NCBI GenBank assembly: GCA_964344135.1
Contig: CAYFMF010000002.1
Location: 20,015 to 84,014 of the forward strand
DNA length: 64,000 nucleotides
Source: an uncultured Piscirickettsiaceae bacterium
Lineage (GTDB): Bacteria; Pseudomonadota; Gammaproteobacteria; GCF-002020875
Reading direction: 5' to 3'
The notes under the pieces were generated by a model. It was not told the DNA's origin and did not search any database. It saw nothing but the letters and a program-made list of their open reading frames with translations. Shown here piece after piece: positions 20,223-51,675 of the stretch (its first letter is position 1; every line of letters starts with the position of its first letter). Made by a program: the position numbers and the translations under genes.

Positions 20223-20534
20223 TGGTGGGCCCACCTGGACTCGAACCAGGGACCAAGGGATTCACTGAATCCAAATGTTTCCATTTGGAGCGGACTATCT
20301 CACCATCCACAGCATGACCTGTTTGGATGCGGGACGCTGTAACCTGTTATTAAGAACACTTTAGTTCTCAGGTAGTCTCTGCACCTTCCAGAGGTGTACC
20401 TCTGGCTTGGCTCAGGGTTGCCATCAGCTGTACTGTTAAGGTTTCCCTGAATTCATCCCGTTCATCCTGGGCCTTTCGGTCCAGGCGCACCATTTTGATG
20501 AGTCCCCTGCTCTAACCAACTGAGCTATAGGCCC
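20223..20534 (-). tRNA. ileX: tRNA-Ile2 (anticodon CAU, lysidine type) interrupted by a group I intron. 5' exon 20534..20498 (37 nt), intron 20497..20263 (235 nt), 3' exon 20262..20223 (40 nt, CCA encoded)
   Basis: The spliced sequence GGGCCTATAGCTCAGTTGGTTAGAGCAGGGGACTCATAATCCCTTGGTCCCTGGTTCGAGTCCAGGTGGGCCCACCA folds as a cloverleaf (7-bp acceptor, GCTC/GAGC D stem, GGGGA/TCCCT anticodon stem, CCTGG/CCAGG T stem). It is near-identical to E. coli ileX. The intron follows the U of CAU and ends in G. Confidence 0.85.
20263..20497 (-). mobile_element. Group I self-splicing intron (IC3-like, Azoarcus tRNA-Ile type), ORF-less, inserted after anticodon position 36
   Basis: GUG internal guide sequence 5 nt into the intron, able to pair with exon CAU. 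Conserved core elements R-like GGTGCAGAGACTAC and S-like GAGATAGTCCGC. GATGGCAACCCTGAGCCAAGC matches the Azoarcus intron segment UAUGGCAACGCCGAGCCAAGC. Terminal G. Confidence 0.8.
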
Positions 20535-21032: not shown

Positions 21033-22859
21033 CTACCCCTTGTCCAGATAGCTCTCCAGCTTGTCTGAACGGGAGGGGTGGCGCAGTTTGCGCAGCGCCT
21101 TGGCCTCAATCTGACGAATGCGCTCTCGGGTAACATCAAACTGCTTGCCCACCTCTTCCAGGGTATGGTCGGTATTCATGTCGATCCCAAAACGCATTCT
21201 CAGTACCTTTGCCTCACGTGGGGTAAGGCCGGCCAGAACACCCTGAACATCCTCCTCCAGCCCCTCGGTTGTTGCCGATTCATCGGGCTGGATTACATTG
21301 GTATCCTCAATAAAGTCCCCGAGGTTGGAGTCTTCATCATCGCCAATGGGAGTCTCGGTGGAGATCGGCTCCTTGGCAATCTTCAGTACCTTGCGGATCT
21401 TGTCCTCCGGGATCTCCATCTTCTCCGCCAACTCCTCAGGGGTTGGCTCACGCCCCATCTCCTGCAACAGCTGGCGCTGGATACGGTTCAGTTTGTTGAT
21501 GGTCTCGATCATATGGACCGGGATACGGATCGTCCGTGCCTGGTCTGCAATGGAGCGGGTGATGGCTTGACGAATCCACCAGGTTGCGTAGGTGGAGAAC
21601 TTGAAGCCACGACGGTACTCGAACTTGTCGACCGCCTTCATCAGACCGATGTTGCCCTCCTGGATCAGGTCGAGGAACTGCAGGCCACGGTTGGTATATT
21701 TCTTGGCAATGGAGATCACCAGACGCAGGTTGGCCTCAATCATCTCCTTCTTGGCGCGGCGTGCCTTGCCCTCACCAATCGACATCATCCGGTTGATCTC
21801 TTTCAGCCGGGTGATTGAGATGCCGCACTCCTCCTCAATCTTGAGCAGTTTCTTCTGTGCGCGCAGGATGTCACGGGCGTAGCGTTTGAGTGGTGCAGAG
21901 TGCTTCTTCTTTGCTGCAACCTGCCTCTCCACCCACTCCAGATTGGTCTCGTTTTTCGGGAAGGAGGTGATGAAATCCCTGCGTGGCATACCCGCACGTT
22001 CCACGGCAAGGTTCATGACATTGCGCTCGCTCCCGCGCACCTTGTCCATGGCCGCGCGGATATCGGATACCATGCGCTCCAGAAGCTTGGGCACCAGCTT
22101 GCACTGCATGAACTGATCGGCAATCTCTGTCCGGATCTCATCACATTTTTCATGCTCGATGCCGTGGCGCTTCTCTGCACGTGCCAGTTTCTTGGCAAGA
22201 GCTGCAATGGTCTGCAGGCGGCCGCTCATCATCTCCGGAGGAGGGCCGGTGAACCCTTCGTCCTCCTTCTTGTCGCTGGAATTGCTTCCCCCTTCGCCGG
22301 GGATGACAGGCTTTGGTGGTTCGGGGCAGTAGTCGCACAGCCCGGTGATTACCGATCCAAGCTCCTGGTTGCCCGCATTGATCTTGTCGAACTCCTTGAG
22401 AAGTTCATTGATGGTGTTGGGGTAGTGGGCCAGCGCATTCATCATCTGGCGCATTCCAGCCTCGATGCGCTTGGCAATGACAATCTCCCCCTCACGGGTC
22501 AGCAGCTCAACCGATCCCATCTCACGCATGTACATGCGGACAGGATCCGTGGTGCGTCCCTGTTCACCCTCTGCAGAGAGCAGAACGGAGGCGGCCTCGG
22601 CTGCGGCCTCCTCGTCATTTTCATCATTGGCGCTGCCACTCTCACCAGAGATCAGCAGGCTTTCGGCATCAGGGGCCTTCTCAAGCACATTGATGCCCAT
22701 GGAGTTGATGACATTGATTACGTTTTCAATCTCATCGGTATCCGTGATCTCACCGGGAAGGAGATCATTGATTTCGCCATAGGTCAGATAGCCCTGCTCC
22801 TTTCCCTTGGCAATCAGGTTCTTGATTTCGTTTTCTTCTGCTTTGATTGGTTGAGCCAT
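21033..22859 (-). CDS. rpoD: RNA polymerase sigma-70 factor RpoD
   Basis: Regions 1.1 to 4.2 are recognisable (for example the -10 recognition helix and the C-terminal HTH). Start taken at MAQPIK. Confidence 0.9.
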
Positions 22860-22977
22860 GCTGATCGAGACCACTCCGGAGAGGTTGCTGTTACATCGAA
22901 TATCGGAAAATATTCACAACGTTCTGTTCAAAACGAACCGCGCATTCTACACCATTCCGGGCGGGTTCGTCACTACT

Positions 22978-46206: not shown

Positions 46207-46263
46207 AATAGAAGGTCAAATTTGTTGTTATGGTTGTGGTGCACTTGTAACCGTTCAAATCGC

Positions 46264-46355
46264 TTTCGTACAGTTCAAGAGCAAGGCAGAAAATGTGAGT
46301 TTACAAGGGTAAATGGCCATTTTCTAACACAGCTATTGGGCTGTACGAAAGTGAG
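46264..46355 (+). repeat. About 92-nt conserved structured element, copy 1 (long closing stem around a conserved core), 12 nt upstream of the hyuA-like start codon
   Basis: Aligned with copy 2 at 50030..50121. Confidence 0.6.
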
Positions 46356-46367
46356 GTGAGTGGTTAG

Positions 46368-48335
46368 ATGATTCTGGGTGTCGATACGGGTGGAACCTTC
46401 ACCGATTTCGTGTTGTGGGATGGAGAGCGTCTCCAGATCCACAAGGTGCTGTCGACCCCGGAGGCTCCCGAGCGGGCCATTCTGCAGGGGATTGAGGAGC
46501 TTGCTGCCCCGCTTGATGGATTGACGATTATCCATGGCTCCACGGTTGCCACCAACGCGGTACTGGAGGAGAAGGGTGCACGTACCCTGTTGATTACCAA
46601 CCGCGGATTTGGTGATCTGCTGACCATTGGGCGCCAGGCCCGGCAGGAGCTCTACAACCTGCAGCCAGAGATCATGGCACCACCCGTTCCGGAGAGAGAC
46701 TGCCTGGAGACCGGGGGGCGCGTCAATGCTGTCGGGGAGGTGGTTGAGCCGCTGACGGAGGAGGATCTGGAGGGGCTCAGGAGGCAGGTTGAGCAACGGA
46801 ATCCCGAGGCGGTTGCGATCAACCTGCTCTTCTCCTTTCTCAATCCTGACAGTGAGATGGAGATTGAGTCCATCCTTCCAAAGGGGCTCTTTGTCTCCCG
46901 CTCCTCAAGGGTACTGCCGGAGTATCGTGAGTATGAACGGGGCATTACCACCTGGCTCAACAGCTATGTGGGACCACTGGTTGAGGGTTATCTGCAGCGT
47001 CTGGAGCAGGGGGTTGAGGGGGCACAGCTCTCTGTCATGCAATCCTCGGGAACCACGATATCGGCCGCTCAGGCAGGATCCGGTGCGGTCCACATGCTGT
47101 TATCCGGCCCGGCAGGTGGGTTGGCGGCCGCCCACTACCTGGGACAGCAGCTTGGGCGCGAGCAGCTCCTCACCTTTGATATGGGTGGAACCTCAACCGA
47201 TGTCGCGCTGATTGATGGGGGGGTCCGCCTCACCTCGGAGGGGAGGATTGGCCGTTTCCCAGTGGCTGTGCCCATGGTGGACATGCACACCATTGGTGCC
47301 GGCGGAGGATCGATTGCGCATGTGGATGAGGGGGGGATGCTGCAGGTGGGCCCCGAGTCTGCCGGTGCCTCACCGGGGCCGGCCTGTTACGGAAAGGGAG
47401 GGGTCGAGGCGAGCGTTACGGATGCCAACCTGGTGTTGGGCAGGCTATTGCCAGAGGCCTTTCTGGGGGGAGGAATGGTGCTGGATTCCGGGGCCGCCGA
47501 GTGTGCGGTGGGCGGAGTGGCAAGGGATCTGGAGTGCTCCATGAGCGAGGCCGCCGAGGGGATTATCCGGGTCGCCAATGAGCATATGTCACATGCGCTG
47601 CGTGTCATTTCGGTACAGCGCGGGATCGATCCGCGAGGTTTTACACTGACCTCCTTTGGCGGGGCGGGTGGTCTCCATGTCTGTGCGCTGGCAGAGTCGC
47701 TTGGGCTGCGTCATGCAATGATCCCCATTCATGGCGGGGTGCTCTCTGCGCTTGGGATGCTGGTTGCCCCCCGGGGTCGGGAGCTCTCAAGGTCAATGGT
47801 GATGCCACTCGCTGAGCAGGGTGATGCGTTGATGGAGCTGGCATTCGGCAGGCTGGAGCAGCAGGGGATCCTGGCCCTTGTCAGGGAGGGGGTGGCGGAG
47901 CAGAGGATCGATACCGTTAGAACGGTTGATCTCCGTTATCGGGGGCAGTCCTTTACGCTGAATGTCGGGTGGGAGAGTTGCAGTGCGGTGGAGGAGGGGT
48001 TCCACCGGGCCCACCAGGAGCGATATGGCCACTGCTTTGAGTTTCCGGTCGAGCTGGTCAACCTTCGGGTGGTGGTTCGGGAGCGGCTGGAGTCACCGAC
48101 TCTGCTGCAGGGGGAGAGGCCTGATGAACCGCATGAGACCGGGCGAACCCTGTTGGTGGGGATTGGTGAGGTTCCGGTCTACCGGCGGCAGCAGTTGGCA
48201 ACAGGGGATACGGTGCAGGGGCCGGCACTGATTACGGAACAGGTCTCCACCTCACTGATTGCAGAGGGGTGGAGCTGTGAGGTGGATGCAAGCGGGACAC
48301 TGCTGCTGGAGCGAGGCCAGTCCGATACAGGGTGA
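46368..48335 (+). CDS. Hydantoinase/oxoprolinase family protein (HyuA-like), no hyuB partner nearby
   Basis: 655 aa, ILGVDTGGTFTD N-terminus. Confidence 0.75.
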   Translation: MILGVDTGGTFTDFVLWDGERLQIHKVLSTPEAPERAILQGIEELAAPLDGLTIIHGSTVATNAVLEEKGARTLLITNRGFGDLLTIGRQARQELYNLQPEIMAPPVPERDCLETGGRVNAVGEVVEPLTEEDLEGLRRQVEQRNPEAVAINLLFSFLNPDSEMEIESILPKGLFVSRSSRVLPEYREYERGITTWLNSYVGPLVEGYLQRLEQGVEGAQLSVMQSSGTTISAAQAGSGAVHMLLSGPAGGLAAAHYLGQQLGREQLLTFDMGGTSTDVALIDGGVRLTSEGRIGRFPVAVPMVDMHTIGAGGGSIAHVDEGGMLQVGPESAGASPGPACYGKGGVEASVTDANLVLGRLLPEAFLGGGMVLDSGAAECAVGGVARDLECSMSEAAEGIIRVANEHMSHALRVISVQRGIDPRGFTLTSFGGAGGLHVCALAESLGLRHAMIPIHGGVLSALGMLVAPRGRELSRSMVMPLAEQGDALMELAFGRLEQQGILALVREGVAEQRIDTVRTVDLRYRGQSFTLNVGWESCSAVEEGFHRAHQERYGHCFEFPVELVNLRVVVRERLESPTLLQGERPDEPHETGRTLLVGIGEVPVYRRQQLATGDTVQGPALITEQVSTSLIAEGWSCEVDASGTLLLERGQSDTG

Positions 48336-48369
48336 TGTGTCCATGCTGCTCTTCAATAGGAAAACGCAC

Positions 48370-48398
48370 AAAAAAGCCCGCAACATGCGGGCTTTTTT
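48370..48398. terminator. Bidirectional rho-independent terminator (AAAAAA-GCCCGC-AACAT-GCGGGC-TTTTTT)
   Basis: Perfect 6-bp GC stem flanked by A and T tracts. Serves the hyuA-like gene (+) and rpmG (-). Confidence 0.7.
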
Positions 48399-48415
48399 GC
48401 GATTATGACGCCATT

Positions 48416-48571
48416 TTACTTGATCTTCGCCTCTTTGAAGATCACGTGCTTGCGTACCCTGGGATCATACTTCTTGATCTCCATCTTCTCGGGCATGGTG
48501 CGCTTGTTCTTGGTTGTGGTGTAGTAGTATCCAGTCCCTGCTGAAGATACCAGTTTGATCTTGTCACGCAT
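48416..48571 (-). CDS. rpmG: 50S ribosomal protein L33
   Basis: My own translation: [51 protein letters not shown]. Confidence 0.85.
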
Positions 48572-49990: not shown

Positions 49991-50029
49991 GTGGATTTGC
50001 ATTTGTCCCTATATAGGCTGTCAGGTTGT

Positions 50030-50121
50030 TCTTGTATGGTCCAGGAGCAAGGCAGTAAATGTGAGTTTACAAATGTAACTGTCCATTTTTTAACGCGGCT
50101 ATTGGACCGTACAAGAGTGAG
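50030..50121 (+). repeat. About 92-nt conserved structured element, copy 2, 10 nt upstream of the ugd start codon
   Basis: Aligned with copy 1 at 46264..46355. Confidence 0.6.
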
Positions 50122-50131
50122 ATAGCAGTTT

Positions 50132-51301
50132 ATGAAGATAGCAATTGCCGGTACCGGCTATGTCGGACTCTCCAATGCGGTACTGCTGGCTCAGCACAAT
50201 AATGTGGTGGCGCTCGACATCATTCCCGAGAAGATCGAGATGCTCAATCGCGGGGAGTCCCCAATTGTTGATGAGGAGATTGAGGCGTTCCTGCAGAGCC
50301 GGGATCTCGATTTCCGGGCCACCCTGGACAAGGAGGAGGCCTACCAGGGGGCGGATTTCGTCATTATCGCCACTCCTACCGACTACGATCCAGAGAGTAA
50401 CTACTTCAATACGGGATCGATCGAGGCGGTGATCCAGGATGTAATGGAGAGTAACCCTGATGCAGTGATGGTGATCAAGTCCACTGTGCCGGTGGGGTAC
50501 ACACACAAGGTCAGGGAGCAGTTTGGCTGTGACAATATCCTCTTCTCCCCGGAGTTCCTGCGGGAGGGGAGGGCGCTCTACGACAATCTCCACCCCTCAC
50601 GCATCATTGTGGGTGAACAGTCCGAGCGGGCCAGAAAGTTTGCCGATCTGCTGGTTGAGGGGGCAGAAAAAACCGATATTCCCGTCCTCTTTACCCACTC
50701 CACCGAGGCGGAGGCGGTCAAGCTCTTCTCCAACACCTACCTGGCGATGCGGGTTGCCTACTTCAATGAGCTCGATACCTATGCCCAGGTGCATGGCCTT
50801 GACAGCAGACAGATCATTGAGGGGGTTGGGCTGGATCCAAGAATCGGCACCCACTACAACAACCCCTCCTTCGGCTATGGGGGCTACTGCCTCCCCAAGG
50901 ACACCAAGCAGCTGCGGGCCAACTACCAGGATGTTCCCAACAACCTGATTCGTGCCATTGTGGAGGCCAACACCACCCGCAAGGACTTTATTGCCGACAC
51001 AATTCTTGCCAGAACCCCAGAGGTGGTTGGGGTCTATCGCCTGATCATGAAGAGTGGCTCCGACAACTTCCGCGCCTCCTCGATCCAGGGGATCATGAAG
51101 CGGATCAAGGCGAAGGGAATCGAGGTGGTGATCTATGAACCGGTGCTGGAGGAGGATGAGTTCTACCACTCAAGGGTGATCCGGGATCTGGAATCCTTCA
51201 AGCAGCAGTCGGATGTGATCATCGCCAACCGTCTCTCGGATGAGATTCTCGATGTGGAGGAGAAGGTGGTTACCCGTGATCTTTTCGGTAGTGATAGTTG
51301 A
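50132..51301 (+). CDS. ugd: UDP-glucose 6-dehydrogenase
   Basis: [12 protein letters not shown]. Confidence 0.9.
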
Positions 51302-51675
51302 TAGTGGTAGTGAGTAGTGTAAGTAGCTATCAGGATTTGGAGATATGGAAGAGGAGTATTTATCTCGTAGAGCAAGTTTATATGCTGGTTAAGCAGTTGC
51401 CACGAGAAGAGACCTATGCGCTATCAGACCAGATGAGAAGGGCTGCGGTCTCCATACCGAGCAACATCGCTGAAGGGGCGAGCAGAAACTCAACCAAAGA
51501 GTACATTCAGTTCCTCTACATAGCGCTAGGATCTGCTGCTGAATTGGAAACACAGTTGATTATTGGAGAAAGAATCGGTTACTTCCGGGCAATTAATGCT
51601 ATAAAACAATCGCTTGTTGAAATCAAAAAGATGCTCCATGGCTTGATTTCATCCTTGAAAAGAAAAGAGAGATGA
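51298..51675 (+). CDS. Four-helix-bundle protein (the family often found in 23S rRNA intervening sequences and polysaccharide loci), AT-rich gene
   Basis: [11 protein letters not shown]...[26 protein letters not shown] family signature. Confidence 0.6.

Follow-up and report, generated by a model that had tools for sequence, protein, structure and literature searches.

A covarying hairpin at the ugd start codon of an uncultured Piscirickettsiaceae bacterium is very probably a fossil copy of a dispersed MITE family

What occupies the gap between ilvE and the UDP-glucose 6-dehydrogenase gene (ugd) in an uncultured Piscirickettsiaceae bacterium, a regulatory leader or a repeat? The gap lies in a stretch of 64,000 nucleotides (contig CAYFMF010000002.1, positions 20,015 to 84,014), which was analysed as a whole and is referred to here as the window, and it holds a structured element of which the preliminary description recognised a second copy upstream of a hydantoinase-A/caprolactamase-alpha-like (hyuA-like) gene. 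We conclude that the element at ugd is very probably a fossil copy of a MITE, presumably mobilised in trans by a single-ORF, ISBst12-like DDE transposase of the IS66 family. For this copy the assignment rests on sequence homology to the family (56 bits) together with empty sites in relatives.

That the window contains two copies of one structured element is borne out by a 28-mer, GAGCAAGGCAGnAAATGTGAGTTTACAA, found only at 46279 and 50045 where chance would give 0 matches, and by an alignment of 46264–46355 with 50030–50121, in which the two copies are 83% identical, near-identical in the centre and diverged in the arms. Seven pairs of the stem differ between them, three on both sides and four in a G·U-compatible manner, with none disruptive. 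Folding of these two stretches gave −33.8 and −44.8 kcal/mol on the + strand (z = −4.5 and −9.0) and the weaker values of −28.0 and −33.9 kcal/mol on the − strand. The proposed hairpin, its covariation and its folding on the + strand are supported. The neighbouring genes are also as first described, with copy 2 placed between ilvE and ugd; copy 1 is flanked by a divergent fpg and the hyuA-like gene. No third copy was found within the window, and Rfam returned no match at either copy, at the gathering threshold or at E <= 10.

The boundaries of the element are wider than was first thought. Alignment of the family described below defines a unit of 121 nt, and the features of the two sites are as follows.

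50013–50133 (+): copy 2, a 121-nt MITE hairpin unit and very probably a diverged fossil (family HMM, pairing, fold)
50030–50121 (+): the stretch originally described, which is the inner part of the copy 2 unit (alignment, fold)
50045–50105 (+): conserved core, comprising internal loops and the inner hairpin GAAAATG..TTTAC-loop-GTAAA..CATTTTC (BLAST)
49991–50012 (+): 22 nt between the ilvE stop codon and the copy 2 unit (junction alignment with empty sites, family architecture)
50132–50134 (+): ugd start codon, paired in the foot of the hairpin (predicted MFE fold)
46247–46367 (+): copy 1, a 121-nt hairpin unit (HMM, pairing, fold)
46230–46246 (+): putative degenerate left target-site duplication ATGGTTGT (46230–46237), followed by a 9-nt left extension (46238–46246)

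The statement that copy 2 ends 10 nt before the ugd ATG is correct for the inner boundaries from which it was made and does not hold for the 121-nt unit, which overlaps the ATG. The core matches 46279–46339 over 61 nt at 87% identity by BLAST, and it is the best-conserved part of the element both between the window copies and across the family, the conservation of its left half being partly built in by the search pattern used to collect the copies.

That pattern, GCAGNAAATGTGAGTTTAC, with 18 specified bases, was taken from the core and used to scan species-representative genomes (one per species), where it identified at least 119 loci. At least about 108 of the loci listed are true copies with a significant match to the family HMM. 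Among the matches listed, copies are concentrated in a few uncultured gammaproteobacterial MAGs, with at least 26 loci in JALWKV, at least 21 in CAYFNH and at least 16 in CAYFOU, and the hosts include several MAGs labelled Piscirickettsiaceae, the vent MAG JALWKV, Thiomicrorhabdus, two Sedimenticola, a Cellvibrionaceae MAG and HyVt-560. None of the 11 listed matches in unrelated taxa has an HMM match, and their number fits chance, for which our own rough estimate with 18 specified bases is about 17. The core pattern had no match in viral contigs, and blastn with a 152-nt consensus found none among the PLSDB plasmids. All of the approximately 128 listed copies are intergenic, and by gene calls made with longest-ORF heuristics the copies listed have no orientation bias towards the downstream gene (51 on the same strand, 52 on the opposite strand). 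The suggestion that the element is a generic repeat rather than a pathway-specific riboswitch is thus supported, there being more than 100 dispersed copies in either orientation. Across loci L011–L128 the right end often lies 0–8 nt from, or overlaps, the stop codon of a convergent gene, and the reverse complement of the terminus, GTAAC, contains TAA.

Complete copies of the family end in GTAACTRYTCAG...CTGARYAGTTAC, and 49 of 75 are exactly 121 nt long with GTAAC...GTTAC termini, the rest being lengthened internally by insertions of some 22 or 25 nt. To the left of the unit most copies are extended by about 20, 31 or 43–44 nt, and this extension starts with a third copy of the terminal 12-mer, a perfect inverted repeat of the right end; with up to two mismatches allowed, this outer left repeat is complementary to the right end in 34 copies. 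Just outside the segment from outer repeat to right end, an 8-bp direct repeat is perfect in 22 of these 34 and agrees at seven of eight positions in a further four, whereas shifted controls reached seven of eight or better in 0 of 136 cases. When all copies are taken together, an 8-bp repeat with at most one mismatch is found in 42 of 88, compared with 15 of 352 controls. In some copies, such as L122 (GAGGTTTT), the 121-nt unit stands bare between directly adjoining 8-bp repeats. The elements measure 121–165 bp and contain no transposase ORF. An active-looking member consists of the outer left repeat GTAACTRYTCAG, a spacer of 8–31 nt and the 121-nt unit, within which an inner copy of the left repeat, the conserved core and the right terminal repeat form one long hairpin, and an 8-bp target duplication lies on either side.

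Small size, terminal inverted repeats, an 8-bp duplication and dispersed copies with empty orthologous sites are the signatures of a MITE as defined in a review of such elements (PMC3184786), and the family has all of them; in the window copies they are eroded, the termini of copy 2 being degenerate and its duplication unrecognisable, while the duplication of copy 1 agrees at six of eight positions. The duplicated 8-mers at loci L011–L128 are AT-rich, often with a terminal run of T. Two internal modules recur in the longer copies, one of about 22 nt (CCGAGCTTGCGAGGTCGCGCCACAC) in the 3′ half of the 143-nt copies L015, L032, L040, L042, L047 and L109, and one of about 25 nt (TAACCGCCTGAAGGCGTTGCTTCGC) in the 5′ half of the 146-nt copies L030, L051, L074 and L112; each can form a short G+C-rich hairpin. 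At L116:1623-1809 a MITE copy is split inside its core by another element of about 185 nt, whose own inverted ends (CCTATCGTTGCATAAAG.../...TTTATGCAACGTTAGG) and flanking GTTTAC on both sides point to a second MITE family nested in the first.

How do the two window copies compare with this family? Against a family HMM built without it, copy 2 scores 56 bits over model positions 9–115, and copy 1 scores 81 bits over positions 1–120. Copy 2 has the termini ATAGGC...GTTTAT in place of GTAAC...GTTAC, with neither canonical ends nor a recognisable target-site duplication, but its stem has been retained: 43 of 46 consensus pairs are standard (33 Watson–Crick and 10 G·U), and at 16 pairs both partners depart from the family consensus. 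In copy 1, 45 of 46 pairs are standard. The MFE of the whole unit is −46.1 kcal/mol on the + strand and −31.3 on the − strand for copy 2, and −57.4 and −42.2 kcal/mol, respectively, for copy 1. Both belong to a diverged subfamily, with 14 copies in the alignment, and the lack of canonical termini and clear duplications in this subfamily indicates that its members are old insertions.

The history of the sites can be read from relatives. Genomes with Ugd homologues at 83–87% identity share the gene order fpg/hyuA-like/rpmG-rpmB/ilvE/ugd/epimerase/gmhA/hldE, and in L002–L009, L210 and L211 both sites are empty: the ilvE stop codon abuts or overlaps the ugd ATG (TAAATG), and the spacer between fpg and the hyuA-like gene is about 22 bp. 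Given these abutting genes and this short spacer, the intergenic stretches of the window at these sites, 141 and 161 nt long, are insertions over their whole length. The 22 nt at 49991–50012 are also missing from the relatives and occupy the place of the left extension and outer left repeat, although they are unrecognisable as such. Both copies are present in another genome of the same species (GCA_973355655.1, L209), where copy 2 is 100% identical to that of the window and matches the family HMM at E = 1.6e-16. Further afield, a metagenome scan with the HyuA-like protein returned only relatives at 56–72% identity, and no copy of the element was present in these 80 more distant hyuA loci (about 545 kb); the longer Ugd homologues P0004 and P0005 have another gene context without the element.

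At the hyuA site the duplication made on insertion is still traceable. The right end of the copy 1 unit lies 1 nt before the ATG of the hyuA-like gene, the adjoining 8-mer ATGATTCT (46368–46375) includes that start codon, and it agrees with ATGGTTGT at six of eight positions. In locus L058 the site is filled and reads TATAATGTGTTT, ATGATTTT, the element, ATGTTTTT and GGG, ATGATTTT and ATGTTTTT being the two duplication copies, whereas the empty site of L002 reads TATAATGCTCCA, a single ATGTTTTT and GGG. The L058 copy (2118–2238, −) and copy 1 of the window occupy one and the same 8-bp site, at the hyuA-like start codon, in two lineages. Judged by HyuA identity these are not nearest to each other, and the site is empty in genomes that fall between them. 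HyuA of L058 is 78–79% identical to that of the empty-site genomes and 72.8% identical to that of the window; with the filled L058 nearer to empty-site genomes than to the window, the site is ambiguous for dating the insertion: it may have been hit twice, or an old insertion may later have been excised precisely.

The likely parent family was recognised from the ends. A single-ORF insertion sequence of Geobacillus kaustophilus plasmid pHTA426, which encodes a 485-aa protein scoring 218 bits against PF03050 (DDE_Tnp_IS66), has the ends AACTCGTC|GTAACTATTCAGCCC...GGGCTGAATAGATAC|AACTCGTC in its annotated record, and these show the 12-nt terminus of the MITE together with its 8-bp duplication. 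ISDge4, of the ISBst12 group of the IS66 family, has the terminal repeats GTGACTACTCAGCA and GTAACTGCTCAGCA and an 8-bp direct repeat (PMC12898284), and 8-bp repeats are general among IS66 elements (PMC11946415). It is by these ends and this duplication that the family, apparently undescribed until now, is tied to ISBst12-like IS66 transposases. A tblastn search with the pHTA426 transposase detected no transposase gene in the window, nor in the fetched loci, which cover roughly 8 kb around each copy and total about 1.5 Mb. A parent insertion sequence was also sought among the fetched loci as pairs of candidate ends, and these enclose ordinary genes (holA, lptE and leuS in L071) or represent split or nested copies.

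In the lineage of the window, one copy inserted precisely between the stop codon of ilvE and the ATG of ugd, which are fused as TAAATG in the relatives, and another inserted at the ATG of the hyuA-like gene. In the relatives ugd is presumably translationally coupled to ilvE, and in the window lineage this coupling would be broken. In the predicted MFE fold of the extended copy 2 the whole ugd AUG is paired, whereas that of copy 1 ends beside the AUG of the hyuA-like gene and contains a GAGG stretch. If ugd is transcribed from upstream, its AUG and the preceding purine-rich stretch would be locked in a −46 kcal/mol hairpin, and expression would then need melting or processing of this hairpin, or a transcription start inside the element. 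Of note to specialists, ugd, the head of an LPS/sugar-nucleotide cluster, and the hyuA-like gene now start at the foot of predicted hairpins of −46 to −57 kcal/mol, and at the ugd site the hairpin replaces the presumed translational coupling to ilvE. A wider meaning lies in the existence of a MITE family spread over several marine and vent gammaproteobacterial lineages.

A feature of the family that is of particular interest to specialists is its fold, which shows covariation by way of G·U intermediates and wobble on one strand in a DDE-type MITE without orientation bias to host genes. In 78 distinct copies standard pairs make up 96.7% of the stem cells, compared with 36–46% in slid controls, and 29 of 46 pairs show changes on both sides, a number reached in 0 of 500 column shuffles. 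The non-Watson–Crick cells include 445 with G·T and 34 with A·C, and counting the states common to at least three copies puts G·T at 20 pair columns as against three for A·C. The + strand is the more stable in 76 of the 78 copies, with a mean MFE of −57.7 against −42.6 kcal/mol. States found in two copies or fewer are, on the other hand, nearly symmetric (G·T 26, A·C 18, other 57). Strong covariation combined with wobble on one strand argues for selection on a single-stranded fold, whether of RNA or of ssDNA, and we infer that multiplying lineages have been under selection for the fold of one particular strand, whereas copies that stay in place mostly decay. The selected form would most likely be RNA, either started at the left end of the element itself or produced by read-through, with ssDNA as the alternative. 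Other sources of double changes are available: symmetric binding of a transposase to both ends can explain them, as can template-switch correction of quasi-palindromes, which can yield them without selection (PMC8794818), but neither would account for the asymmetry between G·T and A·C.

A plain DDE-type MITE would predict neither the one-strand wobble nor a core better conserved than the termini. The mechanism of IS66/ISBst12-type transposition is poorly characterised, and we consider it a fairly unlikely idea that the one-strand fold and the asymmetric core are needed for propagation of the MITE, through a structured RNA or ssDNA intermediate in this type of transposition, or else that old copies have been exapted as hairpins that occlude start codons. 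A broader version of the latter, in which the window copies were kept as cis-regulatory RNA that would slow translation, act as a thermosensor, be cut by RNase III or stabilise the mRNA of ugd and the hyuA-like gene, is a tentative proposal on the unlikely side. The old, window-like subfamily, despite its lost termini and duplications, keeps 43–46 of 46 pairs with 5–16 double-sided changes, and within it G·U outnumbers A·C by 91 to 8; between the two lineages with a filled hyuA site the copies show three double and five compatible changes and no disruptive one, and both window copies are sense-oriented and abut or overlap a start codon. Such retention for a host function sits poorly, however, with relatives that do without the element at both sites, with the random orientation of the family towards genes and with the near-symmetry of the rare states, which is what neutral decay of resident copies would give, while template-switch correction offers a route to the double changes that involves no selection. 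A fossil MITE copy that has been left in place is the reading we prefer.

The conserved core had also been proposed to embed a weak sigma-70-like promoter, and the motif in question, TTTACA-N17-TTTAAC, is indeed present at 50066–50094. As a mobile promoter the element would serve the downstream gene from the + strand (TTTACA-N17-TYTAAC) or an upstream gene from the − strand (TCGAAA-N17-TAAACT, directed towards fpg from copy 1), and such a role could be imagined from the conservation of these motifs in most copies and from the insertion having displaced the sequence that natively lay upstream of the hyuA-like gene. The second hexamer of the + strand candidate, which is TTTAAC or TCTAAC in the window and TCGAAC in the family consensus, lacks the A2 and T6 of a −10 box, the − strand candidate matches at only about 8 of 12 positions, and a consensus promoter scan found no sigma-70-like site in either window copy. 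A relaxed scan of the whole family gave only weak candidates (8/12) in the core. An embedded sigma-70 promoter is therefore not borne out, and we regard a mobile promoter of either orientation as improbable.

It is still less credible that the element is a REPIN, that is a REP doublet mobilised as ssDNA by a RAYT (an IS200-like Y1 transposase). This would explain a strand-specific fold with G·T wobble confined to one strand, and the 5′ heads GTAG, GTGG or GTAA of many copies, like the long hairpin of about 120 nt, the intergenic placement and the high copy number, are in keeping with it. The perfect 8-bp target-site duplications, however, are not made by Y1/HUH single-strand transposition, the termini are identical to those of a DDE element of the IS66 family, the stems are AT-rich rather than G+C-rich, and a non-exhaustive look at the fetched loci showed no Y1 transposase.

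A conserved 5′ leader RNA common to ugd and the hyuA-like gene (a riboswitch, an attenuator or a protein-binding leader) deserves next to no credence, even though a stable covarying hairpin does lie directly 5′ of two start codons on the sense strand. The preliminary description had itself named absence from relatives that keep the gene order as evidence against such a leader, and that is what is found at both sites in the syntenic relatives, so that the position of the element is not a conserved one. The copies beside unrelated genes in both orientations, the terminal repeats with their target-site duplications and the lack of an Rfam match even at E <= 10 point the same way, and absence from the relatives together with the transposon signatures already refutes the reading; that the element is the relic of a transposon had previously gone unseen. 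For annotation this removes a false lead, since two 5′ leaders sharing a covarying hairpin would otherwise have been catalogued as a candidate riboswitch or sRNA. Integron attC sites can be rejected on the target duplications and on the termini, with GTAAC.../...GTTAC ends that are unlike RYYYAAC/GTTRRRY core sites and copies that lie singly between housekeeping genes and not in cassette arrays.

Several other features of the window were recorded. Between ugd and the epimerase gene lies a gene of the 23S_rRNA_IVP family (51298–51675, +; a four-helix-bundle protein with a Pfam score of 128.8 bits and a weak bAvd-like match), and as ugd is directly followed by the epimerase gene in L002–L009, L210 and L211, the cluster here has a second insertion specific to the lineage. 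Between the hyuA-like gene and rpmG there is a perfect bidirectional terminator-like hairpin (AAAAAAGCCCGCA...TGCGGGCTTTTTT, 48367–48401), and the sub-threshold Rfam matches to Thr, Trp and Leu leaders (Thr and Trp at 48349–48416) reflect only this hairpin. Just downstream of rpoD (21033–22874, −) there is a tRNA-Ile(CAU)-like gene (20223–20534, −) with a group I intron in its anticodon loop (Rfam RF00028, 76.5 bits, 20271–20509), the exon junction being GGGACTCAT|intron|AATCCC and the gene ending in ...GGGCCCACCA. ARAGORN reported no tRNA in the window, presumably missing this gene on account of the intron, which we take to resemble the known Azoarcus-type tRNA-Ile intron.

Among known systems, the closest to the MITE are the ISBst12-group IS66 elements, namely ISDge4 of Deinococcus geothermalis and the pHTA426 insertion sequence, with which it shares the terminal repeat GT(A/G)ACT(A/G)(C/T)TCAG (12 nt identical to pHTA426) and the 8-bp target-site duplication. 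It differs from them in having no transposase gene and a size of 121–165 bp as opposed to about 1.6 kb, and in its internal third copy of the left repeat and its conserved palindromic core, which are not seen at the ends of the pHTA426 element. REPIN/REP-BIME elements with their RAYTs also form long intergenic hairpins in many copies, and their activity is on single-stranded, strand-specific DNA. REPINs have short G+C-rich palindromes and are not known to make a target-site duplication, whereas the MITE has 8-bp duplications and DDE-type termini.

The Correia/NEMIS elements of Neisseria and the enterobacterial ERIC/IRU elements resemble the MITE in their length of 100–170 bp, terminal inverted repeats, intergenic position and multiple copies, and they can change the stability or translation of neighbouring mRNAs. 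They are unrelated to it in sequence, the target duplication of Correia elements is TA and not 8 bp, and for the MITE a parent family can be identified. On transcription both groups form a long stem-loop (PMC3184786). Finally, bcr1 of the Bacillus cereus group is a mobile repeat of about 155 nt with direct-repeat flanks that is transcribed and in which compensatory changes keep the RNA structure (PMC3184786). It belongs to a different phylum, has 5-bp direct repeats and a two-hairpin, cruciform-like fold, and is unrelated to the MITE in sequence, yet it provides a precedent for compensatory evolution in a mobile repeat (PMC3184786).
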